This document shows positions 8,062-64,000 of a stretch of DNA of 64,000 nucleotides, piece by piece. A program made the position numbers and the translations under genes. The notes beneath the pieces were generated by a model, which saw only the letters and a program-made list of their open reading frames with translations, did not search any database and was not told the DNA's origin. This DNA is from Candidatus Woesebacteria bacterium RIFCSPLOWO2_01_FULL_39_23. Its GTDB lineage: Bacteria; Patescibacteriota; Microgenomatia; UBA8517. The DNA lies in NCBI GenBank assembly GCA_001793095.1, contig MGHG01000005.1, forward strand, positions 6,569 through 70,568. Reading direction: 5' to 3'. Every line of letters begins with the position of its first letter. Within the stretch, counting starts at the first letter, position 1.

Positions 8062-8089
8062 CATAACGTTCATTAATATATCAATACAT

Positions 8090-8424
8090 GCGGGGTAGTG
8101 TACGGCTGCACGGAAGGCTCGAAGTAATTGGGCCCTCAGATAAGAAATTATTATGAGTGAATTTGGTCACGGTACCATGTAGTACGTGATCGTGCGCTAA
8201 ATAGTGCGCGACTATATCGGTGAAACCTAAGTGGTAAGTATAAGCGGAATCATAAGGTAACGCCGAGGAAAGATCCTGAATAAAATTGAAGGAAATCCGT
8301 AGAGACTATACGCCAAATACCTAAACTATATTTAGAATGGTAAAGACATAGTCCGATACTCCGGGAAACCGGAGAAATTTTTAAGCATAATCTTCCAGGC
8401 TGGGTTCGACTCCCAGCCCCGCAA
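8090..8424 (+). ncRNA. ssrA: tmRNA (SsrA)
   Basis: 5' UGCGGGGU pairs with 3' ...GCCCCGCA across about 335 nt. The 3' end is a tRNA-like T-arm, CTGGG TTCGACT CCCAG, plus acceptor strand, discriminator A, and no encoded CCA. The 5' region GGCUCGAAG resembles the conserved tmRNA GGAUUCGACG box. No D-arm is present. Tag reading frame not resolved. Confidence 0.6.
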
Positions 8425-10880: not shown

Positions 10881-10955
10881 TGGTGGAGCCGCTTGGAGTC
10901 GGACCAAGTACATCGATCTTATAAGGATCGCGTTCTGCCGGTGAACTACGGCTCC
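10881..10955 (-). tRNA. tRNA with UAU anticodon (putative tRNA-Ile decoding AUA), CCA encoded
   Basis: Minus strand: GGAGCCG TA GTTC ACCGGCA GAAC G CGATC CTTATAA GATCG ATGTA CTTGG TCCGACT CCAAG CGGCTCC A CCA. All stems are Watson-Crick, giving a 72 nt body plus CCA. Confidence 0.7.
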
Positions 10956-53389: not shown

Positions 53390-54025
53390 ATGCTAAATTA
53401 TAAATTTCAAATTAAAAGACACAATAAGCCTTCTCGTACTTCATACTACTTGCTACTTTCTACATTGTTCCTCGTTGCTTTCTTAGAACGTACTGTTTGG
53501 GATCTGGGACCGAATGTCGAGCTGGTAACGACGGTGATGATTTTAGCCTCGTTTTATCTTGGCAGAAAAGAATCTTTCTGGCTTACGTTCACAATAATCG
53601 CGACGACAGATAGACTTATCGGAAACTCAAGCATCTTCCTCTTCACCTGGAGCGGCTTCCTCCTTCCGGCATTTCTAGCCGGTAGTGTATTTAAATACCT
53701 ATCTACTAAATACAAGCATCCAGCTACAAAGAAAATATTAGATGGTGTTTTGTTAACTTCCTTAGGTATCTCTTCTAATATTTTCTTTTATCTCTGGACC
53801 AATTTTGGCGTCTGGCTACTCGATTCCTGGGAAATGTATACCAATAATCTTCGTGGACTTCTCCTTTGCTACATCAACGGCCTGCCATTTTTGAAGAATC
53901 AAATGGTCAGCTCACTTCTCTTTATCCCGCTGGGAATTGTCCTAATCGAAGCTGCCTTAAAACTAGCAATAAAATACAAGTCGAATTATGCAAATTATCT
54001 TCAGATCCTTAAAGATTCACACTAA
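53390..54025 (+). CDS. polytopic membrane protein, ECF-transporter S-component-like
   Basis: 211 aa, 5-6 TM helices; 4 nt after the DUF4430 gene. Confidence 0.4.
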   Translation: MLNYKFQIKRHNKPSRTSYYLLLSTLFLVAFLERTVWDLGPNVELVTTVMILASFYLGRKESFWLTFTIIATTDRLIGNSSIFLFTWSGFLLPAFLAGSVFKYLSTKYKHPATKKILDGVLLTSLGISSNIFFYLWTNFGVWLLDSWEMYTNNLRGLLLCYINGLPFLKNQMVSSLLFIPLGIVLIEAALKLAIKYKSNYANYLQILKDSH

Positions 54026-54066
54026 AACTCTTAATTCTTAATCTTTAAGAGGCAAAAAGTGAGACT

Positions 54067-54309
54067 TTATTGCGAAGGTGGTTTATATACAAAATTCGGG
54101 TCAAAGACCTTAGATGAATCTTCCTTCGGTACTACATGAAGTGTAATTGCCGTTATCGGCACTACCCCTTTTATATAGTCCGCTTTACACCTCAAACACC
54201 AATTCGTTATTGCTTCTTCTCCTATGCCATGTGGGTTAACAGACCTAATTATGGCTGGAATGGGACATCCGACTATAGAGCATCCATCGGGTTTTAATTG
54301 TTCCAGCAT
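54067..54309 (-). CDS. hypothetical Cys-containing small protein
   Basis: 80 aa with 4 Cys (C..C...C..C). Confidence 0.3.
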   Translation of the reverse strand: MLEQLKPDGCSIVGCPIPAIIRSVNPHGIGEEAITNWCLRCKADYIKGVVPITAITLHVVPKEDSSKVFDPNFVYKPPSQ

Positions 54310-54345
54310 AGCTTATTATACTTTCACGGAATCTAGAAATACAAG

Positions 54346-54903
54346 CTATATTCTGACTTTATTCGAAGGTTTAAACTTCCACCCCGGTAAATTGTCTGAA
54401 AAATCCTGCACCACACCGATTGCTGCTTGCGACGATTTAATGCGCGGCCCCTTGCGTAACTCTGTTGGTGTCATGCAAAAAATAATATCCAAGGTGTTAT
54501 CTCCCGCACCTGTAACATACACTTGAACGTTAGCTGAATTACCTGTATACTCTTTTTCGCGTTCAAATCCTAATCTTTTAGCAATTACTTCGGGGTCAAA
54601 ATCGAATTCATCTTTCAAATCAAGTTGCCTATTGTTACGTTTGGCCATAACCTCTTCAATTGTAAAACCCTCTCGCTTATATAGCTTAGTCACTGGAATC
54701 CGGAGATAACCAACGCCAGTACGTTCAGGACTTAATAATGCCTGAAGCTTAAGCCCATTAGTCGTAGTTACCGAACAATAAAAGACACCATTTCTAAGTT
54801 CAGCGTCATCCCACTTTTTGACTTGGCGCGAGATTTCGCCTCCATTTTCTTCAATATACTGCCATGTTTCCCTAGATGGTGCCATGTGACATAAATATAG
54901 CAC
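54346..54903 (-). CDS. hypothetical protein
   Basis: 185-aa ORF. Confidence 0.35.
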   Translation of the reverse strand: MLYLCHMAPSRETWQYIEENGGEISRQVKKWDDAELRNGVFYCSVTTTNGLKLQALLSPERTGVGYLRIPVTKLYKREGFTIEEVMAKRNNRQLDLKDEFDFDPEVIAKRLGFEREKEYTGNSANVQVYVTGAGDNTLDIIFCMTPTELRKGPRIKSSQAAIGVVQDFSDNLPGWKFKPSNKVRI

Positions 54904-55050
54904 TTAATGATTAATATGCAATCAATAATTGAATATGAATAGTTAACGTTATATTACAATATATAAGAGAAAACCATCTAGCCTGGCTTCCCTTTCTTTA
55001 GAAGTTATATTACGAATAATGAATTTATTTACTACTCACTTAATATTTCT

Positions 55051-55770
55051 ATGTTCGTATATTACAGTTATTATATGGGTTACTTTGGTAAATTAGATGA
55101 AAGAATCAAAGTACAAGAACTTCGTAGGAAGGGGTATTCTTACAATGAGATACTTCAATATGTAACAGTTTCTAAAGATACTCTGAGCAGATGGTGCAGT
55201 AATATTCCCCTATCTGTCGAACAACAAAACCGTTTATTAAAAAACAAATCTTTAGGACAACGTAAGGGATCGCTAATAGCTGCAGAGAAAAAAAGGGAAG
55301 AAAGGATATTTAGAACAAATGCAATTATGAATAAAGCCAAAAAGGAAGTGGGGAAACTGAACAAAAGAGAAAGATTTATAGCTGGTTTAGCTTACTATTC
55401 AGCAGAAGGCGATAAATCTGAGAGCAAAAGTGGTTTTGCCAATTCTGACCCTAAAGTAATATGTTTCATGATTAATTGGTTCAAGGAGTTCTGTAATATC
55501 CCTGAGTCAAAATTTCGTGGAGCTTTGTGGTTACATGAAGGTTTAAATGACTATCAAGCGAGAAGGTTCTGGTCAAAAATCACAGGAATACCACTAGAAC
55601 AATTTTATAAGACTTACATTGCAAAAAACAAACAAGACAGTAAAAAGGTCAGAAAAAATCTACATCTATATGGGGTATTTTCTATAAGGTTTTGCGATGT
55701 AAACATACAAAGGAAAATATTAGGATGGATTTCAGGTTTATTTGATGCTAAAATCGGTACTGCTCTTTAA
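55051..55770 (+). CDS. HTH-domain protein with LAGLIDADG-like motif (homing-endonuclease-like), paralog 2
   Basis: 239 aa; N-terminal HTH LRRKGYSYNEILQYVTVSKDTLSRWCSNI; IAGLAYYSAEGDKSE LAGLIDADG-like box; GFANSDP box shared with 7309..7992. Ends 3 nt before the intron-containing tRNA. Confidence 0.5.
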   Translation: MFVYYSYYMGYFGKLDERIKVQELRRKGYSYNEILQYVTVSKDTLSRWCSNIPLSVEQQNRLLKNKSLGQRKGSLIAAEKKREERIFRTNAIMNKAKKEVGKLNKRERFIAGLAYYSAEGDKSESKSGFANSDPKVICFMINWFKEFCNIPESKFRGALWLHEGLNDYQARRFWSKITGIPLEQFYKTYIAKNKQDSKKVRKNLHLYGVFSIRFCDVNIQRKILGWISGLFDAKIGTAL

Positions 55771-55773
55771 TAT

Positions 55774-56066
55774 TCCCCGGTAGCTCAGCGGTAGAGCGGA
55801 TTCCTGTGATTTCTTAGCAGCTCTTAAGGGAAACTTTAAGATGAAAACTGGGAGAATTGCGTGAAGCCCCTATCTTCGGATGAGGTAACCCGCAGCCGAT
55901 CCTTTGTTAAAGTGGAAAGCACTGCTTTAGCTTAGGCAGGTTCAGAAACTATGCACCCAGACTCTAATCCAAATCGGCATGAGTAAGATATAGTTCCGCG
56001 TCCCATGGAAACATGGGGGTACGAGTAAGAATAAGGTCGTAGGTTCGAATCCTACCCGGGGAGCCA
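55774..56066 (+). tRNA. tRNA-Asn(GUU) interrupted by a 218-nt group I intron between positions 35 and 36 (intron 55808..56025); CCA encoded
   Basis: Exon 1 is TCCCCGG TA GCTC AGCGGTA GAGC G GATTC CUGU. Exon 2 is UAA GAATA AGGTC GTAGG TTCGAAT CCTAC CCGGGGA G CCA. The acceptor is a perfect 7 bp. The intron has group I core elements: P-like GGGAAACTTTAAGATG, Q-like AATTGCGTGAAG, R-like GTTCAGAAACTATG and S-like AAGATATAGTTCC. An IGS GCAG can pair with exon CUGU, and the intron ends in G. Confidence 0.8.
55808..56025 (+). mobile_element. group I self-splicing intron (tRNA anticodon-loop type, no internal ORF)
   Basis: Conserved P/Q/R/S core sequences are listed above. The 218-nt length is in the range of Azoarcus/Anabaena tRNA introns. 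The ORFs listed on the opposite strand inside it are spurious. Confidence 0.75.
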
Positions 56067-56090
56067 GAATCTTTTGTAGTATAATTAAGT

Positions 56091-56387
56091 ATGCATAATA
56101 TTCCAACCCCAGAAGGCTTGCAAGCAGTTCTGTGGTCAAAAAAATTAAACAACATAGACATTAATAAAGACAAAAACTATATCATTAATCAGGTGCTTGC
56201 CTACGGCCTTATAGAACATATCCAGTGGCTCTTTAAGGTGTATTCAAGAAATACAATTATTGAAACTTTTTTGGAAAATCCTTCCAAGATATACTCAGAT
56301 AAAGCTTTAAATTTCATAAAGTTCATTCTTTTTGAAAATAATCCTGTCAATTTAGACGAGAAAAAATATGTCCGATATCCACTTTGA
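56091..56387 (+). CDS. hypothetical protein (possible antitoxin partner of the downstream AbiEii-like gene)
   Basis: 98-aa ORF overlapping the downstream gene start by 20 nt. Confidence 0.3.
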   Translation: MHNIPTPEGLQAVLWSKKLNNIDINKDKNYIINQVLAYGLIEHIQWLFKVYSRNTIIETFLENPSKIYSDKALNFIKFILFENNPVNLDEKKYVRYPL

Positions 56388-56997
56388 AATACTCGATCCG
56401 GACAGATTGGAAGTATTCAAACTCCTAGCTAAATTCAAAAAATATGGCGTATTGGGAGGTGGTACTGCTATCGCACTTCAAATAAAACATCGAAAATCTT
56501 TTGATTTTGACATTTTTTTAAATCAGAGTGTTCCAGAGGAATTAAAAGAGAGTGTAAAAAGTGTTTACAGAGATTTCCAGATACTTCGTGAAGAAGCTAA
56601 TCAAATAGACTACATTGTAAAAAAGGAAATAAAATTAACTTTTCTAAAACACGCGTTTCCCCCTCTGCATTCACTTATAGATACAGGATATATAGAACTT
56701 TTCAATCTAAAAGATTTAGCTAGTAACAAAGCGGCAACCATCGGCAGGAGAGGAACTTGGAGGGATTATGTCGATTTATTCTTTTTAATAAAAGATGGCA
56801 CCTCGAATTTAAAAGAGATCATAGATGAGACAGAAAAAAGGTTTGGGGGTGAGTTCAATAAAAGACTTTTTCTTGAGCAGCTCCTCTACACAAGGGATAT
56901 AACTGACTATGAAATTGACTTTCTTGGTAAAAAACATGAACCCGAAGAAATTAAAAACTTCTTTGAAGATCAAGTAAAAAGTTATAATAGGTTCTAA
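56368..56997 (+). CDS. AbiEii/AbiGii-family nucleotidyltransferase (DUF1814) toxin-like protein
   Basis: 209 aa; GVLGGGTAIALQIKHRKSFDFDIF matches the GGTALxLxxxHRxSxDxD nucleotidyltransferase signature of AbiEii. Confidence 0.55.
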   Translation: MSDIHFEILDPDRLEVFKLLAKFKKYGVLGGGTAIALQIKHRKSFDFDIFLNQSVPEELKESVKSVYRDFQILREEANQIDYIVKKEIKLTFLKHAFPPLHSLIDTGYIELFNLKDLASNKAATIGRRGTWRDYVDLFFLIKDGTSNLKEIIDETEKRFGGEFNKRLFLEQLLYTRDITDYEIDFLGKKHEPEEIKNFFEDQVKSYNRF

Positions 56998-57068
56998 AAT
57001 CCTCCTATATACCCACCATTCTTCTCAATTAGCTCTTTTTTTAGAACTTTTGATATACTTCAAATATT

Positions 57069-57356
57069 ATGAGGAATTTGCTTAGTAAGACATGTGCTTG
57101 GCTTCCTATTACAATGTCAGCTTCTGCATTGATATTTACACTTGTTTGGTTGGCGGTATTTGGAATTGTGCGCAGCGAAGATGAAGGTATAGCTGCCCAC
57201 ATTTTTCAGCTACTCATGGGTGGTCAGCTGCCAATAATTGCCTTCTTTGCTCTCAAATGGGTACCGCAAAAACCGAAGCAAGCTATAGGGGTATTGGCTC
57301 TGCAATTTGTTGCTGGAATTGTTGCCTATGCTCCAGTTTATTTTTTAAAGCTGTAG
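57069..57356 (+). CDS. small membrane protein
   Basis: 95 aa, 3 TM helices. Confidence 0.3.
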   Translation: MRNLLSKTCAWLPITMSASALIFTLVWLAVFGIVRSEDEGIAAHIFQLLMGGQLPIIAFFALKWVPQKPKQAIGVLALQFVAGIVAYAPVYFLKL

Positions 57357-57414
57357 CTTAATCCAGTATTTCTCTCTAATTGATTTATACAATCATAAAC
57401 TTCATTATTAAATA

Positions 57415-58263
57415 ATGCGCCAGAAAGGATTCATCCACGTTATTCTGCTTATATTAATTGTCTTTATCACTATGGGGGTGATGAGTTTTGTTATGTATAA
57501 CGGATCTAAGAAAGAGCTCAATCTTGAGGGAGATTCAAATTACATCTATAAAGACCAAGCAGAGAAAAAGATGAATAAAAAAGAATTTGGATGGCCAAGT
57601 AATACAGCGAAATACATAACCGCAGTTCCGGTTGATTTGACCCAGATTCAAAGCATATCTAAATACCGATCGTGTGCAGGTCACATTCGGGATGGATACG
57701 ACTTCGACCGTATTCGAGAATACGATAGCTCTATGAAACATTATTTGTACCCGATTCCTATGTATCAAGTCACAATGGATAAGGTAAAACTATTTGCTCC
57801 TTTTGACGGGAAAGTTATTCAGATTGATTACGAAAAAAATAAGGTGATCCCCGGTCGACCACATAACGGTAACGGTATTCATTTTTCAACTTTAGTTGAT
57901 CCTAATGTTAAATTTGTTTTTGGTCACCTATATTTCGCGCGAGATTTTAAAATCGGTGAGGAAGTAACAGCCGGGGAATTAATAGGCTATGCCGCTATTG
58001 GTGATAAAGGAACCGATTTTGATATCGACCTTTCAGGTATTAATAAAACAAATGATGACGTCGAAATCCTCGGTTCAGCCTTTGACCATATGACGGACAC
58101 AGTATTAGCGAAGTTCGCCAAATATGGAGTAACTTTGGAAAATATCAAGTTCAGTAAAGAGTATAGAGATGTCCACCCTTGTGGTTATTACGGAACGAAT
58201 AAAGACAGATCTGACCAATGCATTGGCAGAATAAACGAATGTTGGGTGCAATTAAAGCACTAA
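57415..58263 (+). CDS. membrane-anchored hypothetical protein (possible M23-like peptidase fold)
   Basis: 282 aa; N-terminal TM; HIRDGYD (HxxxD) present but second His motif not clear. Confidence 0.35.
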   Translation: MRQKGFIHVILLILIVFITMGVMSFVMYNGSKKELNLEGDSNYIYKDQAEKKMNKKEFGWPSNTAKYITAVPVDLTQIQSISKYRSCAGHIRDGYDFDRIREYDSSMKHYLYPIPMYQVTMDKVKLFAPFDGKVIQIDYEKNKVIPGRPHNGNGIHFSTLVDPNVKFVFGHLYFARDFKIGEEVTAGELIGYAAIGDKGTDFDIDLSGINKTNDDVEILGSAFDHMTDTVLAKFAKYGVTLENIKFSKEYRDVHPCGYYGTNKDRSDQCIGRINECWVQLKH

Positions 58264-58319
58264 AATTCTTCTTAAAGACTTTCGTTGACTTCGTCAAATA
58301 GAGACCTCATTATTAATTA

Positions 58320-58412
58320 ATGCGCCAGAAAGGATTCATTCATATCTTTCTTCTTTTCTTTATTGTTATCATTTTAGCTGTAGTTGGTATTACAACTTAT
58401 AACAACCGTTGA
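58320..58412 (+). pseudogene. duplicated 5' end of gene 57415 (MRQKGFIH...) truncated after 30 codons
   Basis: About 35 nt including the RBS region (ttattaa(t/a)taATGCGCCAGAAAGGATTCAT) are near-identical to 57405-57440; the ORF terminates after a TM-like 30 aa. Confidence 0.35.
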
Positions 58413-58816
58413 AACGATTAAAATTCACAACAAGACGAAAAAGACAATAAATTCAATTTTATAGAAAAACTAAGACAAAGCAGTAAATATCAAAATCCTT
58501 CCTTAAATTATAGTTTCCCAGACTGCTCTACAGATACTTCAGGAATTTTTACAAAATCTTTTAGGGGGGGTGGTTAACCGACTTATATAATTCCTCTCGG
58601 TGGTTCCATCAAGGCGGGCAAGTTACACCACAGATCATGTTTATCCAATAAGCTTTACTAACCAGAAAATCGTACCTATATATGCGCCGAAGGGCGCTGC
58701 AGTCAAAATGAATCTTTCCAAAAACCGATTACGTATGAATTAAATCAAAACCAACTCTCTGTCTGTTTTGAAAATTTAAATCAGATTCCCCTTTTCAGCC
58801 ATGGTAATATATTAAG

Positions 58817-59386
58817 ATGAACGTTAACAAACGCTTCGTGCTGGAACCGGACATGCGCGACGAACTTCTTAATACTCTGAAAGACCGTTTTGAGAAAAAC
58901 ATGAACCGCCATAAAGGCCTCGTCTGGTCTAAAGTGCAGGCAAGGCTGGAAGCTCATCCGAAAAAACTATTGTCACTTTATGAGATGGAAAGAACCGGCG
59001 GTGAACCGGATGTTGTTGGCCGCGATTCTAAAGCGGTTGAATACAAATTTTATGATTGTTCGGCGGAAACCCCCAAGGGCCGCAGAAATGTTTGCTACGA
59101 TCGTGAAGCATTGGAGTCAAGGAAAGAACATAAACCAAAAGGTTCTGCACTGGATATGGCAGAAACTATGGGAATTGAACTCTTAACTGAAGAGGAATAT
59201 CGGGAGCTGCAAAAACTTGGTTCTTTTGATACGAAGACATCAAGCTGGATAAAAACACCCGCTGACATTAGAAAACTCGGCGGTGCCCTCTTTGCTGACC
59301 GCCGTTACAATGCTGTCTTTATTTATCATAACGGTGCGGAATCTTATTATGCCGTTCGGGGATTCCGCGGTAAACTTCGGGTCTAA
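58817..59386 (+). CDS. DUF4256-like protein in a GC-rich, atypical-codon segment
   Basis: 189-aa ORF. Local GC is about 46%, against an approximately 38% background. It makes frequent use of CTG/CGC/GGC/CCG codons, unlike the flanking genes. Confidence 0.45.
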   Translation: MNVNKRFVLEPDMRDELLNTLKDRFEKNMNRHKGLVWSKVQARLEAHPKKLLSLYEMERTGGEPDVVGRDSKAVEYKFYDCSAETPKGRRNVCYDREALESRKEHKPKGSALDMAETMGIELLTEEEYRELQKLGSFDTKTSSWIKTPADIRKLGGALFADRRYNAVFIYHNGAESYYAVRGFRGKLRV

Positions 59387-59512
59387 TCCGCCAGCCTGCG
59401 TATGCACGAACAGCTAAATTTGAATTTGAGGATCTCCTGAATAAAGAAAGAAATTATCTGAAAAGGAGGGTGAGATTTTCACAAAGCACAATTTGCTGTA
59501 CCATATGCTCAT

Positions 59513-60775
59513 ATGGGGCTATTTATTGAAGCACGAGAGCGGGTAGCTTATGATCGTGTACCTGAAATCAAAGAAACAGAAACACAATTTAGGAGATATG
59601 CGGGGGCAACATGGAACGGGATTGAAGAAGCAAGTAGGACAAAGACGGGATTTATAGATGACCAGATAATTCCAACAAATGGTGAGTATTTACTAAGTGG
59701 AGAAACCTCAATTACAAATATGGGCTTAGTTCTACCATGCACTATTGCAGCTTCTGAGTTGGGACTGTTAAAGGAATCTGCAAGCGAAAGTTTGGACAAG
59801 AGCATATCGGAAATAGAACACCTACCCCGAACTAAAAAGAGATTTTTATATACGTGGTATGACACAGAAAATGGCCAAGGACTTAATAATAGCAAAAAAA
59901 GCGGGGATCCCTGGCCTCTCGTGTCAACAGTGGATACGGCGTGGTTATTAGCGGGATTAATGACTGCACGACAAGCATACCCCGAATTTAAGGAGCGTGT
60001 TGATAAAATAATGAGGTCGGTAAATGTCCCGTTTTTGTATGATAAGAAGAAGGGGTTATTTTGGGGTGTATACGATGGAGTGAGGAATAAACCGACCGGT
60101 TTTCACTATGATTTACTAGCTTCTGAGGCGAGAATGATGACTTACATAGCTATGCAAGAATACGGTATTCCCACAGAAGCATATTTTAAATTAGGCAGAG
60201 AAGGTGTAGGAAAAAGCAGGTCAGAAAGTGGCGGAAAACAAAAATTAATGAGCTCGGGCGGCGGCGCCTTGGAAATATTATCTCCAAGACTTCTCGTACC
60301 GGAGGGAGAATGGAGCGAGTTGGGTCTGAATATTCTCCAAAAGAGATTTGTAGACTGTATGGTAAGAGGTAATCCAAAGATGGGATCAGGAGGTTATAAG
60401 TCGCCATGTGAGGAGGGGGGAGTTTACGGGGAACACGGTATAGGAGAATTTAGCCTAAACAACCCCTGTACGGGAGAGACTGAAACGCCGGTTGCGGCCT
60501 TTTTAGGGCTGTCTATACAACCTGAGAAAATACCCAAATTTCTGTCTCGTATTGAGTGGGAGATTCCGGGTGTATATCGTGAAGATTTGGGTTTCGCGGC
60601 CTCCTTCAACCGCAAAAATAGGACTGCTTCCAAGGCCAGACTGGCTGTTGACTCCGAGATGATATTTTTAGCAATAGCAAATCACGTGCTTGACGGGAAA
60701 ATACAGAAATTATTTGCCCCTCAAGTGGAGGCAACCGTTAAACCTTTACTGGCATCGGAGAACTACTGTGAGTGA
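59513..60775 (+). CDS. hypothetical protein (possible alpha/alpha-toroid glycosidase-like fold)
   Basis: 420-aa ORF; weak resemblance to DUF3131/six-hairpin glycosidases; assignment tentative. Confidence 0.35.
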   Translation: MGLFIEARERVAYDRVPEIKETETQFRRYAGATWNGIEEASRTKTGFIDDQIIPTNGEYLLSGETSITNMGLVLPCTIAASELGLLKESASESLDKSISEIEHLPRTKKRFLYTWYDTENGQGLNNSKKSGDPWPLVSTVDTAWLLAGLMTARQAYPEFKERVDKIMRSVNVPFLYDKKKGLFWGVYDGVRNKPTGFHYDLLASEARMMTYIAMQEYGIPTEAYFKLGREGVGKSRSESGGKQKLMSSGGGALEILSPRLLVPEGEWSELGLNILQKRFVDCMVRGNPKMGSGGYKSPCEEGGVYGEHGIGEFSLNNPCTGETETPVAAFLGLSIQPEKIPKFLSRIEWEIPGVYREDLGFAASFNRKNRTASKARLAVDSEMIFLAIANHVLDGKIQKLFAPQVEATVKPLLASENYCE

Positions 60776-60884
60776 GATCAGTATTATTCGCAATCCAATC
60801 TCGAAGCTAGTATCCCGGAGGAGTACTTCGGCGAGCTCAATGCGAGCTGAAAAGCTGAAGAGTCCAGCTGCCGGAGTAAAAATT

Positions 60885-61391
60885 TTAAAGCAGAGATAAG
60901 GTAAACCAGGGCAAATCGTAATCGTGAGTAAATTTCAACCCTTGCAGTTCATTTGTATCTATTCCAAGTGCATCTAATATACCAGTAATATCTTTCTTTA
61001 AAACAGAATGTGGAACCAAACAACTATTACTGATTCTATGAGAATAAACTACAATTTTTTTCCACTCAGAATCTCTTGTCCTCTCAAGAAATAGTCTGTA
61101 ACCCCTATCCTTGATTTGAGCGTCAACATAGAGGCCATTACCTTGGTCATCAGGTTCTCCGAACCCAGTATGTAGTAAACCGCTATACCCAAGGCTCCGC
61201 GCCTTTTTCCAAATTTCGGAAGGTGGATAATATCTATCTAAAGTAATTTTACCCAATCTTTTACCTTTACATGCATACACACCTTCGATGCTTATTCCTT
61301 GAAGATCAATGAAATATTCGCTAATGATATTAGAAGCTATAAACGTAAATAGAAAAATGACTACCAATATACGGAAAACTTTCTTGAACAC
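60885..61391 (-). CDS. hypothetical secreted protein
   Basis: 168 aa; N-terminal TM/signal. Confidence 0.35.
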   Translation of the reverse strand: MFKKVFRILVVIFLFTFIASNIISEYFIDLQGISIEGVYACKGKRLGKITLDRYYPPSEIWKKARSLGYSGLLHTGFGEPDDQGNGLYVDAQIKDRGYRLFLERTRDSEWKKIVVYSHRISNSCLVPHSVLKKDITGILDALGIDTNELQGLKFTHDYDLPWFTLSLL

Positions 61392-61485
61392 AATACCTAA
61401 TAATATATTTTGCTTGACTTTGTGTCGACTACTTAGAAATCGGGAGTCTAAGAATCTCAGAATCAGGGAGCACTGACTCTGTAAT

Positions 61486-62088
61486 TTGGAGATTTATTAC
61501 TGTTTGTCTATAATACGCTTCGTGAGACCAGAACTAATATTTCATCGCACAAAAACAACCCTGAACAGATTGGTATCGGGCGAGATTTTTGATCAACGAG
61601 AGCTACATAAACTTGGAGTGCAACATGTGGGTTTAGTTACCCACCCTGAAAATCCAGAAGTGGTGTACGAAAGAATCATTTTAGGAACTTCTATTCCGGA
61701 CACTCAAAGAACAGTTTTTAATAAAACTTTTGAGGGGGATGTAATGCATTTAACTCCAGATCCACGCGGTGTCACGGGGAGTGTGGGATTTATTGATTTT
61801 GTTGAAGTTACAAACCGATACGGAAGTCGAGATCTTCAGAAAAGATATGGTAAAGAGATCCATATAACTTATGCGGGTGTTGAGGTTGGGCAGCGTGGCC
61901 AAATTGCAAATATAAGGCTTTTTGAGGCAATAAAATTAATAGCAAAGAAACGTGGCGTGACTTACATTAGTGCCGAGGTTCACAGTAGTAGATTCCGAGA
62001 ACTTTTCCCAATATTTAAAAGGCTGGGTTTTAAAGAAGGAACAACCCTAAACGATGGCCGTGTCAAAATTTCCTGCGAACTTGTGTAA
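61486..62088 (+). CDS. hypothetical protein (possible GNAT-like)
   Basis: 200-aa ORF; QRGQIANIRLFEAIKLIAKKRG resembles GNAT motif A weakly. Confidence 0.3.
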   Translation: MEIYYCLSIIRFVRPELIFHRTKTTLNRLVSGEIFDQRELHKLGVQHVGLVTHPENPEVVYERIILGTSIPDTQRTVFNKTFEGDVMHLTPDPRGVTGSVGFIDFVEVTNRYGSRDLQKRYGKEIHITYAGVEVGQRGQIANIRLFEAIKLIAKKRGVTYISAEVHSSRFRELFPIFKRLGFKEGTTLNDGRVKISCELV

Positions 62089-62274
62089 CGGGGGGGGTAA
62101 TTGGATTTTGGTCCAATAGATCCTTAGATCTCACTTTCATTTTGTAGCATCTTGATCCCCTCATATCTCGTTATTATAACTCCAATCTCAATCGGATTAT
62201 TAAATATCTCGATTATTCTTTCTAAAGATTTTATAATATCGTAAGTGCTAGGGAGCTTTTGGCTTTGGAGTTTG

Positions 62275-62601
62275 TTATGAATTCTCTGAAATATCGGTAA
62301 CGGGTTTAGGAAGTGGTCTTTTCTCATTAATCATTAGCTTTTCTATAAATGCTTTTTCAAGGTCAATCCCCTTTAATTCACATAACCGTAATAAATTCCA
62401 AAAAACATCAACTACTTCATGATTTAAATCATCTTTACTTTGCTTTTCTCTAACAGCTTCAAAAACTTCTCCCACCTCTTCTCCAATCCTAAGAAGCACT
62501 TCCGTTTCATCCTTGGGATAAAAACCACGACGTTTTAACTGGTCTACCATTAATCTCTGTAATTCATTTATTGTTTTTGACATTATGTTTAATTGTACCA
62601 C
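62275..62601 (-). CDS. mazG: MazG-like nucleotide pyrophosphohydrolase
   Basis: 108 aa; EEVGEVFEAVRE...EVVDVFWNLLRLCE (EExxE...ExxD) motifs. Confidence 0.65.
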   Translation of the reverse strand: MVQLNIMSKTINELQRLMVDQLKRRGFYPKDETEVLLRIGEEVGEVFEAVREKQSKDDLNHEVVDVFWNLLRLCELKGIDLEKAFIEKLMINEKRPLPKPVTDISENS

Positions 62602-62926
62602 CGGTCAACTCAAGGCGACAATGGATTGTTTCTGCAACTTCTTTATCTCCCCCCACCCAATTCTTAAAACCTCCACTTCAATGGGGCTTTCAAAGACTGA
62701 AATGATTTTGTTTAAGGCTGGTATAAACTCCACCAACTCGGGTTTACAACTCTTCGTCAGTTATTTTGATCTCCCAAAATGTTATTTCTAGATACGCATT
62801 AGAGTAATTTGGGTATAAGAATTCCCCGCCCGCTTCGATATGCGAAGCATTTCGGGCAGGCAGAGCTGGGGAGCTCATTTCTACGGATTTCTTCAGATTT
62901 AGGACTTTTGATATACTGCAAATGAG

Positions 62927-63562
62927 ATGCCCAAAAGCATATATCAACACTACCAACAACTGCTTCAGGAGTATGGTGACCCTGTAAATTATTGGCCTCA
63001 GTGGTGCGCTAAGAGCAAATCCACAGAAGAGCGGGAGAAAGTTATTATTGGGATGGTTTTGGTTCAGAGAACTAGCTGGCACAATGCTGACATTGCCCTA
63101 AAAAATCTTAAAAAAGAAAACCTTCTGTCTATTGATGGAATAGCGAAGCTTAAAAATTTGGACCAGCTTACTCAACTTATTCGTCCGGCGGGTTTTTATC
63201 AATCTAAACCTCAGCGCCTTTTTGATATTTGTACCTTTGTTGTCAATCAAGGTGGAATAAAAGGACTCATGAAAAAGGATGTCAAAGATATTCGCCAATG
63301 GCTTCTTAACATTAAAGGTGTGGGTCAGGAAACTGCCGATACAATCCTTTTATATGCATTAGACAAGCCTGTTTTTATTATTGATGAATATACCCGCCGT
63401 TGGGTTGAGAAAGAAGGTTTAATTAAAGAGAAAGACTATTCTAAACTGCAGCAATTTTTCCACATAAATTTAAAGTCAAATCTAAATAACTATCAGAATT
63501 TCCACACCCTTATAATTGTGAGCCAACGAGGTAGGGAAAAGTCAGTAATGGAAGTTGTATAA
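62927..63562 (+). CDS. HhH-GPD superfamily DNA glycosylase (endonuclease III/AlkA-like)
   Basis: 211 aa; LNIKGVGQETADTILLYALDKPVFIIDEYTRRW helix-hairpin-helix + Gly/Pro-rich loop + catalytic Asp. Confidence 0.65.
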   Translation: MPKSIYQHYQQLLQEYGDPVNYWPQWCAKSKSTEEREKVIIGMVLVQRTSWHNADIALKNLKKENLLSIDGIAKLKNLDQLTQLIRPAGFYQSKPQRLFDICTFVVNQGGIKGLMKKDVKDIRQWLLNIKGVGQETADTILLYALDKPVFIIDEYTRRWVEKEGLIKEKDYSKLQQFFHINLKSNLNNYQNFHTLIIVSQRGREKSVMEVV

Positions 63563-63569
63563 TCAGTTC

Positions 63570-63731
63570 ATGAGGTGTCCTAAATGTGATACAGAAATGG
63601 TTTTGAAGAAGAAAGATAACAGTTTTAATTTTGATGTAAAACCAAAGAAAAAGTACGAAAGAAGTATGTATTGGTGCGAGAAAGATGATATTTGGATCAG
63701 TATTGAAACTCCTGTAGGGGAAAATAGATAG
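63570..63731 (+). CDS. small zinc-ribbon protein (unlisted 53-aa ORF)
   Basis: MRCPKCDTEMVLKKKDNSFNFDVKPKKKYERSMYWCEKDDIWISIETPVGENR; CPxC...WC pattern. Confidence 0.3.
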   Translation: MRCPKCDTEMVLKKKDNSFNFDVKPKKKYERSMYWCEKDDIWISIETPVGENR

Positions 63732-64000
63732 AAAATCTTCTTGAAAGAAAGGCCACATGTTTACTTTTCAAAAAATCAGTAATACAATCCGGGTATGACG
63801 ATTGAAAAACTAAAAAACAAATTTCCCTGGAATGTCATCGTCAAGATAGAAGAATTTATTAACGGTGGTTATCCTGTCGAAATAACCAGAGAGCCAATAT
63901 GGGAATCTTATGTAAAAGAGGATGGGACCAAGGGTTTCCGTCCTACAAAAGGAACCAGAATTAAATATAATAGTCCGGGTTCAGATATGTAGCAAGCTCT

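Follow-up and report, generated by a model that had tools for sequence, protein, structure and literature searches.

A probable dead neighbour gene and a probable old single-gene import of DUF4256 in a Candidatus Woesebacteria genome

We describe a locus in a 64-kb stretch of DNA (the window) from a contig of Candidatus Woesebacteria, which belongs to the Microgenomates within the Candidate Phyla Radiation (CPR). In this locus the start of one gene recurs some way downstream and is followed by a DUF4256 gene and by a gene encoding 420 amino acids (aa). An initial annotation had read the arrangement as a recent insertion. In our judgment the locus is probably composed of a dead neighbour gene, an old single-gene import of DUF4256 and a bystander 420-aa gene. 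We use p282 for the 282-aa product of the gene at 57415, X for a CPR gene family of about 415 aa, and psiX for the X pseudogene that follows p282 (Table 1). Gene decay, concerted evolution of the 5' ends of paralogues and single-gene transfer are known processes, of which the locus offers a new example.

Table 1. Positions of the features of the locus in the window
Feature	Position	Strand	Description
5' module, copy 1 (intact gene 57415)	57380..57502	+	promoter-like TTGATT-17-CATTAT, start codon, N-terminal membrane-anchor codons
p282 gene	57415..58263	+	intact, 282 aa, membrane-anchored; family in CPR and Actinobacteria; predicted M23/LytM-like fold
5' module, copy 2	58285..58404	+	promoter-like TTGACT-17-CATTAT (58285-58313), same start context, first 8 codons, anchor codons
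psiX	58320..58739	+	putative family-X pseudogene; X residues ~12-84 in the ATG frame at 58344-58607
30-codon open reading frame (ORF), MRQKGFIHIFLLFFIVIILAVVGITTYNNR and stop	58320..58412	+	putative N-terminal anchor of the pseudogene; stops at the first nonsense codon, TGA 58410
psiX, middle part	58609..58689	+	X residues ~84-112, different frame
psiX, C-terminal remnant	58692..58739	+	last ~16 X residues, ATG frame again
DUF4256 gene	58817..59386	+	intact, 189 aa, cytoplasmic; probably horizontally acquired; keeps the family codon pattern
Conserved 3' flanking motif, GCACGAACAGCTAAATTTGAATTTGAG	59404..59430	+	accompanies DUF4256 in other phyla; probable right-hand extent of the import
420-aa six-hairpin glycosidase-like gene	59513..60775	+	partial DUF3131; related to beta-1,2-glucan cyclisation/transglycosylase domain

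The segment that separates p282 from DUF4256 is identified by sequence comparison as a putative pseudogene of family X because it carries collinear X matches, a depletion of stop codons in the frame of the ATG, and disabling lesions. Comparison of X proteins with the window by tblastn gave a combined E of 2e-11 at psiX and no other X copy in the window. Positions 5-92 of the X profile matched 58323-58613 in the ATG frame (32.4 bits, E 2.5e-12), positions 93-122 matched the peptide TTDHVYPISFTNQKIVPIYAPKGAAV in another frame (10.3 bits), and positions 390-406, out of 407, matched EGRCSQNESFQKPITYE at 58689-58739, again in the ATG frame (2.5 bits). When the C-terminal profile was run against the six-frame translation of the window, the top match lay at 58692-58739 (4.1 bits) and the next scored -2.9. 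The ATG frame holds 4 stops, as compared with 11.6 +/- 3.1 in shuffled sequences (P 0.008) and with 9-13 in the other five frames. These in-frame stops are found at 58410, 58419 and 58575, with one more at 58659 in the shifted part. The frame changes near 58608 and 58690 (at least two frameshifts), about 270 codons are deleted internally, the normal stop is lost, and GC content falls to 0.34.

Family X comprises anchored proteins of 412-445 aa that have no Pfam match, and its genes adjoin p282-family genes in six other loci fetched for comparison (L087-L090, with three tandem copies, and L092, L095, L098, L128 and L140). A tblastn search with the conceptual translation of psiX against all fetched loci recovered the 412-aa gene directly upstream of the 57415 orthologue in L092 (50% identity over 40 aa); a 420-aa gene in L095 was a weaker hit. 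The remnant had also been considered as a copy of p282, a candidate we rejected: the p282-family profile matched 58264-58816 in the membrane anchor only. Conceptual translations of the remnant had no Pfam match, and BLASTP against the M23 gene downstream of the L085 orthologue gave no significant similarity (E 0.45).

These patterns suggest that the p282 gene sits in a CPR cluster that normally holds at least one X gene, and that the X gene downstream of 57415 died. The leftovers would be a promoter-like region, a start codon, an anchor, about 110 broken N-terminal codons and the last 16 or so, the middle having been deleted. psiX resembles other bacterial pseudogenes in its homology to an intact family, its in-frame stops and frameshifts, its large internal deletion and its low GC content, and it occupies the position of an intact gene in relatives. 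It differs from them in one respect that plain decay does not predict, since it shares a nearly identical promoter-like region, start codon and set of first 8 codons with its live neighbour.

This likeness is confined to a well-delimited 5' module. The 20-mer ATGCGCCAGAAAGGATTCAT occurs exactly twice in the 64 kb, at 57415 and 58320, with 0 occurrences expected by chance. Around it lies a core of 33 nucleotides (nt) with a single mismatch (57402-57434 against 58307-58339, 32/33), contained in an ungapped repeat of 82 nt at 77% identity (57380-57461 against 58285-58366). Allowing one 3-nt gap lengthens the similarity to about 122 nt (57380-57502 against 58285-58404), and its end coincides with the stop of the 30-codon ORF. 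Past this point the remaining 450 nt resemble the rest of the 57415 gene no more than shuffled sequence does (score 13, as against 12.3 +/- 1.5). The repeat of the gene start that had been noticed at about 58310-58345, and the termination of the second copy after 30 codons, are thus both real. The interpretation of this repeat as an insertion or recombination junction does not hold, because the N- and C-terminal remnants of psiX both lie upstream of DUF4256. The import, therefore, did not cut psiX, and the "duplicated start" would be the native 5' end of the decayed X gene, kept alike with the module of its neighbour. The Pfam scan showed no family of recombinases, and inverted copies of the module were likewise not seen; folding of the shared leader as RNA was unexceptional (z about 0), and Rfam gave no match in the region.

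Families X and p282 are remote homologues (hhalign probability 98.7%, E 2e-16, 20% identity). Families this diverged could not have kept 32 of 33 start bases, and the 5' identity is consequently not left over from their duplication. Similar sharing was found elsewhere. Two tandem p282-family paralogues in L095 (2841 and 3797) have 49 nt in common at their starts (z 24); the 56 nt shared in L128 (z 23.7) cover the upstream region and start of an X gene and a p282-family gene that lie 3 kb apart (3773 and 6897). Weaker common 5' stretches were present in L087 (999/2354/3636/6001), L095 and L098, the overall range being 19-56 nt. Furthermore, the anchor motif is specific to the genome and common to X and p282: KRFWW in L087, L092 and L095, QEGFH in L128 and RQKGFIH in the window. 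At the level of sequence, these patterns point to concerted evolution of a promoter/start/anchor module between neighbouring X and p282 genes. Short-tract gene conversion or another recombinational exchange of the module may have been the cause, and selection for a shared expression or export signal may have helped to hold the copies alike.

A further short ORF was observed in L087 (6838-7009, corresponding to 4796-4963 in L090). It spans 55 codons directly after the stop of the p282 orthologue, opens with a copy of the start context of that gene (AATCATGCCA...), encodes MPQT... and a hydrophobic helix, and extends into an ATPase gene of convergent orientation. Here, too, a downstream partner may have been truncated.

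Better-known systems provide a parallel. The vpma genes of Mycoplasma agalactiae and the vsp genes of M. bovis have conserved 5' untranslated and signal-peptide regions (PMC2268961), the lpl genes of Staphylococcus aureus are tandem lipoprotein paralogues that recombine (PMC2568036), and recombination between paralogues is the accepted cause in both cases (PMC2268961, PMC2568036). Like these, the genes studied here are clustered genes for exported or surface proteins in which the 5' non-coding sequence and the N-terminal export segment are similar and the rest differs, and the vpma/vsp type of module sharing is visible in the window, in L095 and in L128. However, we saw no site-specific recombinase, inversion sites or phase-variation repeats of the kind associated with vpma/vsp. 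The products are M23/LytM-like enzymes instead of lipoproteins, the module is found in only two to three genes per cluster, and recombination is in this case a proposed cause.

The likeness to enzymes is seen in p282, which is predicted to adopt an M23/LytM-like fold, that is, to resemble peptidoglycan peptidases. Its AlphaFold2 model has a mean predicted local distance difference test score (pLDDT) of 88, and Foldseek matched the model to Csd1/Csd2, LytM, lysostaphin and EnvC (E 5e-5 to 1e-3). Essentially all of the 28 Protein Data Bank (PDB) matches at E <= 1e-3 were M23/LytM domains. Among M23/LytM peptidases (lysostaphin, LytM, Csd1-3 and EnvC) the predicted fold was matched with Foldseek probability 1.0 and a target-normalised TM score of about 0.5. 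The family has 211 homologues, the best non-self ones 56-64% identical, and distant members carry PF01551. In contrast to the known peptidases, p282 itself has no Pfam match, PF01551 included, and family X likewise lacks PF01551; profile hits in the PDB had E of about 0.3. Invariant His and Asp residues are present in the family, visual inspection of its consensus shows no clear canonical HxH motif, and the resemblance to peptidases is a predicted one.

That the gene belongs to DUF4256, as had been proposed, is borne out by a match to PF14066 that spans the whole profile (positions 1-173 of 173; 301.4 bits, cut-off 27; E 2e-90), and the gene keeps all 84 columns that are invariant in an alignment of 29 sequences. 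It is intact and conserved and is therefore probably functional. The window copy departs from the Pfam family in being the most divergent found (at most 78% identical to any of the 80 genome loci, where 80-90% is typical among the others) and in its CPR host, the family being rare in the CPR. None of the five genes tested, DUF4256 among them, matched an entry of NCBIfam or PADLOC; we found no PDB relative and, in the library searched, no literature on the family, and the AlphaFold model is poor (pLDDT 57).

The composition of the gene is less striking than its codons. GC content is 0.454, as compared with a mean of 0.394 (standard deviation 0.038) for genes of the window (z 1.6), and at third codon positions (GC3) it is 0.421 against 0.35 (standard deviation 0.066; z 1.06). 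The initial annotation had described high GC and an enterobacterial style of codon choice. GC is indeed higher and the codons CTG, CGC, GGC and CCG are enriched (20 of 55 Leu, Arg, Gly and Pro codons, with 8.0 expected from host usage, P 4e-5), but the compositional contrast is modest and the codon pattern proves to be that of the DUF4256 family itself. At 88 of 136 sites (65%, as against 37% expected from host usage, z 7.5) the codon of the window copy is the modal one of the family, and about half of the CTG, CGC, GGC and CCG codons in this copy fall where the family uses that codon. Codon choice is site-specific across the family (more than 10 phyla), evenly along the gene (median pairwise z 3.8): 69 of 81 genes, for example, have CGC in column 94, and 60 of 77 have AGA in the column after it. 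Homologues agree with the window copy at 35-62% of third positions, and where the residues are identical the codon is shared in 37-62% of cases. Permutation within residues predicts about 0.43, and the excess shared with cross-phylum homologues reaches z 4-5, up to 5.7, as compared with about 0 (z -1.2 to 1.9) in the control family of the 57415 gene. The gene has a GC content of about 0.45-0.48 in several hosts with flanks ranging from 0.35 to 0.61.

The distribution of relatives describes a gene that crosses phyla. More than 8000 relatives have 70-82% aa identity outside the protein's own cluster, and in a collection of 5.8 billion proteins the best relative outside its 90%-identity cluster is 82% identical (the representative of the cluster itself, P0001, is 89% identical and comes from another run, with no contig). 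Locus comparisons were made with the 80 best genome loci (L005-L084), giving 81 genes in family counts. All 80 align at the DNA level, the 25 best of them at 76-79%, and the best locus reached 78% at the aa level and 77% at the nt level. They belong to Bacillota, Bacteroidota, Acidobacteriota, Chloroflexota, Ignavibacteriota, Verrucomicrobiota, Planctomycetota, Myxococcota, Actinomycetota and Cyanobacteriota, together with one other Patescibacteria genome and a Promethearchaeota bin. The nearest neighbour lies within the same phylum for only 41 of the 81 genes. Some cross-phylum pairs are very close: Rubrobacter and Chloroflexota (98% aa, 99% nt), Haliangiales and Verrucomicrobiota (95% and 95%), and Promethearchaeota and Chloroflexota (87% and 90%). 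In these pairs similarity stops at or near the ends of the gene, unlike two syntenic Bacillaceae, which align over 20 kb, and they are therefore not identical genomes that were mis-binned. Genes neighbouring DUF4256 are not conserved, and the window copy forms the longest branch, not specifically related to the other Patescibacteria copy (z 2.5).

Flanking sequence travels with the gene. The conserved 3' motif is identical at 21 of 21 nt to the flank of the Haliangiales gene in L047 (E 6e-7), where blastn similarity runs from 59387 to about 59458. The motif was recovered in 5 of 81 DUF4256 loci and in none of the controls. With 0-6 substitutions it stands directly after the stop codon in Haliangiales, Mesobacillus, Anaerolineales and Oceanobacillus, that is, in Myxococcota, Chloroflexota and Bacillota (L047 1217-1240, L039 2235-2258, L007 3714-3737, and just past the stop in L013); in the window it is displaced by a 12-nt insertion that keeps the frame. 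Counted by phylum, such a motif directly follows the DUF4256 stop in five phyla, and in about 16 of the 81 loci the sequence after a TAA, TGA or TAG stop reads in frame as [I/T/M]LHRQLNL[N/D][L/V]RT. The motif had no match in Rfam or in viral contigs, and the consensus fold around the stop codon was weak (-3.7 kcal/mol) and showed no covariation. An inverted repeat flanking DUF4256 (58778-58798 and 59458-59478, 76% complementary, with a 9-nt exact core) was at chance level by estimate and was left unused.

Family codons, a cross-phylum gene tree, similarity limited to the gene and a shared 3' motif together support the horizontal acquisition of DUF4256 as a unit of about 0.6 kb comprising the gene and a short 3' flank. 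The claim that the gene is foreign is thus supported. Its description as recent is not, for the nucleotide-level search that had been proposed returned no locus above 79%. Given the lack of a close donor (at most 78% aa and 79% nt) and the longest branch, the sequences suggest either that the transfer was not recent or that the gene evolved fast in its CPR host. The import would have consisted of the gene and about 45-70 nt of 3' flank (roughly 58817-59458), in a family that appears to move between phyla in gene-sized pieces. The sequence upstream of DUF4256 is host-like and AT-rich, and no terminator-like site on the same strand lies between it and the promoter-like site of psiX, so that read-through transcription from that site may be possible. 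The gene resembles other horizontally acquired single genes and islets in its patchy phyletic spread, the conflict of gene tree and taxonomy, its foreign codons and the flank carried along. It differs from islets in that no mobility gene, attachment site, target duplication or close donor was found, and in its weak compositional contrast: no Pfam family of integrases, transposases or recombinases occurs between 54346 and 63562, and no direct repeats flank DUF4256, the 5' module repeat lying wholly upstream.

A bolder proposal, which we put forward tentatively and consider rather doubtful, is that DUF4256 and an element of about 30-40 nt after its stop form a self-contained, gene-sized mobile unit that lacks a recognisable mobility gene and has spread, recently on an evolutionary scale, among a dozen bacterial phyla, the CPR and Asgard archaea. 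On this view the element would act as a signal for recombination or for expression, or else read-through or re-initiation would lead to its translation.

An ancestral, vertically inherited DUF4256, whose odd codons and flank result from strong nucleotide-level selection in all hosts (on an RNA or DNA element, or on translation kinetics), appears unlikely. It would account for site-specific codon conservation throughout the family and evenly along the gene, for a 3' motif better conserved than synonymous sites, and for the conserved peptide after the stop. However, it has to contend with the scrambled gene tree, with cross-phylum pairs at 90-99% nt identity in which only the gene is similar, and with gene neighbourhoods that are not conserved. 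Moreover, the 80 best genome loci and the window contribute just two Patescibacteria, which are not each other's closest relatives, and neither a conserved RNA fold nor an Rfam match was found.

The 420-aa gene is lineage-specific, and nothing in our results indicates a foreign origin or a joint arrival with DUF4256. Its product matches DUF3131 at 36.1 bits (cut-off 20.3) over profile positions 1-137 of 367 only, and is similar to the beta-1,2-glucan enzymes 8wy1 (E 1e-14) and 8rf9/8rf0 (3e-11) in the PDB. A word-indexed search returned nothing below 1e-5 except the protein itself, and an exhaustive search returned 2036 relatives, the best at 30-37% identity. Its composition is indeed intermediate, as had been noted (GC 0.438, z 1.15; GC3 0.39), and is equalled in GC by several housekeeping-looking genes of the window; CTG, CGC, GGC and CCG are not enriched. 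The inclusion of this gene in the insert finds no support, given its absence near DUF4256 in all 80 loci, the distance of its relatives, and the flank shared with other DUF4256 loci, which ends by 59458, before the gene starts.

The locus is embedded in a larger block bounded by a 26-nt direct repeat, TTTAGAACTTTTGATATACTTCAAAT, whose two copies (57040-57065 and 62898-62923, 24 of 26 positions identical) are the only ones in the window. The 5.86 kb between them, with a 95-aa gene, p282, psiX, DUF4256, the 420-aa gene and three more genes, could be viewed as a single island downstream of an intron-bearing tRNA gene ending at 56066. The bracketing of the block by a sequence found only twice in 64 kb agrees with such an origin, as does the presence of the tRNA gene and of an AbiEii toxin-antitoxin pair just upstream. 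Yet each repeat ends 3 nt before an ATG (57069 and 62927) and contains a -10-like TATACT, which makes a shared promoter at least as likely, and the repeats look more like a shared promoter or leader than like island boundaries. An integrase is absent, and a downstream search for a second tRNA 3' end as an attachment site was negative; p282 and X are typical CPR genes, and composition within the block is heterogeneous. We consider the island improbable.

Several features of the surrounding sequence deserve mention. Two group I introns were identified with Rfam at 55798-56018 (56.7 bits) and 8110-8375 (51.6 bits), both inside tRNA genes (55771-56066 and about 8088-8420) that ARAGORN calls only once the intron is excised. 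The first of these genes has clear 5' (CCCCGGTAGCTCAGCGG...) and 3' (...GGTTCGAATCCTACCCGGGGAGCCA) halves and directly follows a gene for a 239-aa helix-turn-helix protein (55051-55770); the second encodes tRNA-Leu. Between the first tRNA gene and the locus, overlapping ORFs at 56091-56997 encode a pair of DUF6922 and AbiEii, a type IV toxin-antitoxin nucleotidyltransferase. ARAGORN also identified a tRNA-Ile with anticodon TAT at 10881-10955, and this anticodon is uncommon in bacteria.

Returning to the repeat, the 30-codon ORF at 58320 could itself be a working gene for a small membrane peptide, produced by partial duplication of the 5' end of its neighbour and followed by mere spacer DNA. 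Its promoter-like site, start context and hydrophobic helix are all intact, and the repeat core is far better kept than the edges, as if selected. Nevertheless, recognisable family-X sequence (E 2.5e-12) continues in the same frame past its stop, with stops depleted, and the ORF is therefore the stump of a longer gene. A conserved 30-aa homologue was not seen, and the 55-codon ORF that follows the orthologue in L087/L090 starts alike but differs in sequence. A functional peptide gene thus seems quite improbable to us.

The recent insertion of a cassette of DUF4256 and the 420-aa gene, with the duplicated gene start as its junction, is by now largely refuted and has very little left in its favour. 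The repeat does lie 0.5 kb upstream of DUF4256, which is of foreign origin, GC-richer than its host and richer in CTG, CGC, GGC and CCG. However, some 320 nt after the repeat match family X as far as its C-terminal end, so that psiX is complete at both ends upstream of the supposed insert. The 64-kb repeat search found no copy of the module beyond DUF4256 or the supposed insert, no donor exceeded 79% nt identity, the 420-aa gene lacks close relatives and accompanies DUF4256 in no other locus, and integrases and transposases are missing nearby. In sum, the initial annotation was right about the observation and about the foreign nature of DUF4256, and went astray over recency, the junction and the linkage of the 420-aa gene; chimerism, for which it had suggested a check, is not supported either.

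Mis-assembly and contamination are excluded because near-identical contigs were recovered from several samples, some of them bridging the junctions. Proteins of the region are recorded under Candidatus Woesebacteria bacterium RBG_16_40_11 and RIFCSPLOWO2_01_FULL_39_23, and those of DUF4256 and p282 each occur on 22-23 contigs (ENA, JGI and NCBI samples), always in the same gene order. Four contigs from different samples are 99.99-100% identical to the window over the 10 kb from 54000 to 64000, and three short contigs from further samples span the DUF4256 junctions at 99.9% identity. Looking for strain variants, we found only 1-2 single-nucleotide differences and one scaffold gap. This gap of 43 N, in scaffold MGGU01000007.1 of the public assembly GCA_001792575.1 (L173 6978-7020), replaces 133 nt of the 5' part of DUF4256 (58830-58962) and may reflect low coverage or strain variation; a second N-gap of the scaffold lies inside AbiEii. 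Although this gap inside DUF4256 might hint at an assembly chimera or a contaminating contig end, the identical arrangement in so many contigs and the bridged junctions leave that explanation with virtually no probability.

A number of points weigh against the reading of the locus as a dead X gene beside an old import. The same 5' pattern would be expected if a regulatory or export signal were under shared selection, or if a partial duplication had occurred recently. The C-terminal remnant of psiX is weakly matched (2.5-4.1 bits), its main support being position and collinearity. By its GC and codon statistics alone, DUF4256 would not stand out among the genes: in a leave-one-out codon likelihood it ranks 4th of 60 genes (z -2.1), close to the 57415 gene (-2.0) and the 420-aa gene (-1.9), and three genes are more atypical. 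The codon conservation of the family could partly reflect nucleotide-level selection rather than recent common descent, and the taxon labels of many DUF4256 homologues stem from metagenome bins. Finally, all contigs found to carry the locus represent the same strain (99.9-100%), and the closest p282 orthologues (56-64% identical) lie in other gene contexts. No sister genome was found in which the X gene is intact or DUF4256 is missing, so that any order of events, and any left boundary drawn for the import, would be provisional.

The tempting view of the repeat as an insertion scar thus gives way to one that can be checked, a dead paralogue beside an old single-gene import, and impressions of GC and codon use alone would have drawn a foreign segment about four times too large. 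DUF4256, conserved at about 75-90% across bacteria and archaea, with unsaturated synonymous sites and a 3' motif that travels with it, is a family whose function and mode of spread can be tested. In the CPR, clusters of M23/LytM-like surface enzymes share promoter, start and anchor modules at the nucleotide level in at least three lineages. These shared modules suggest that recombination or co-regulation has shaped the evolution of enzymes which episymbionts may apply to cell walls.

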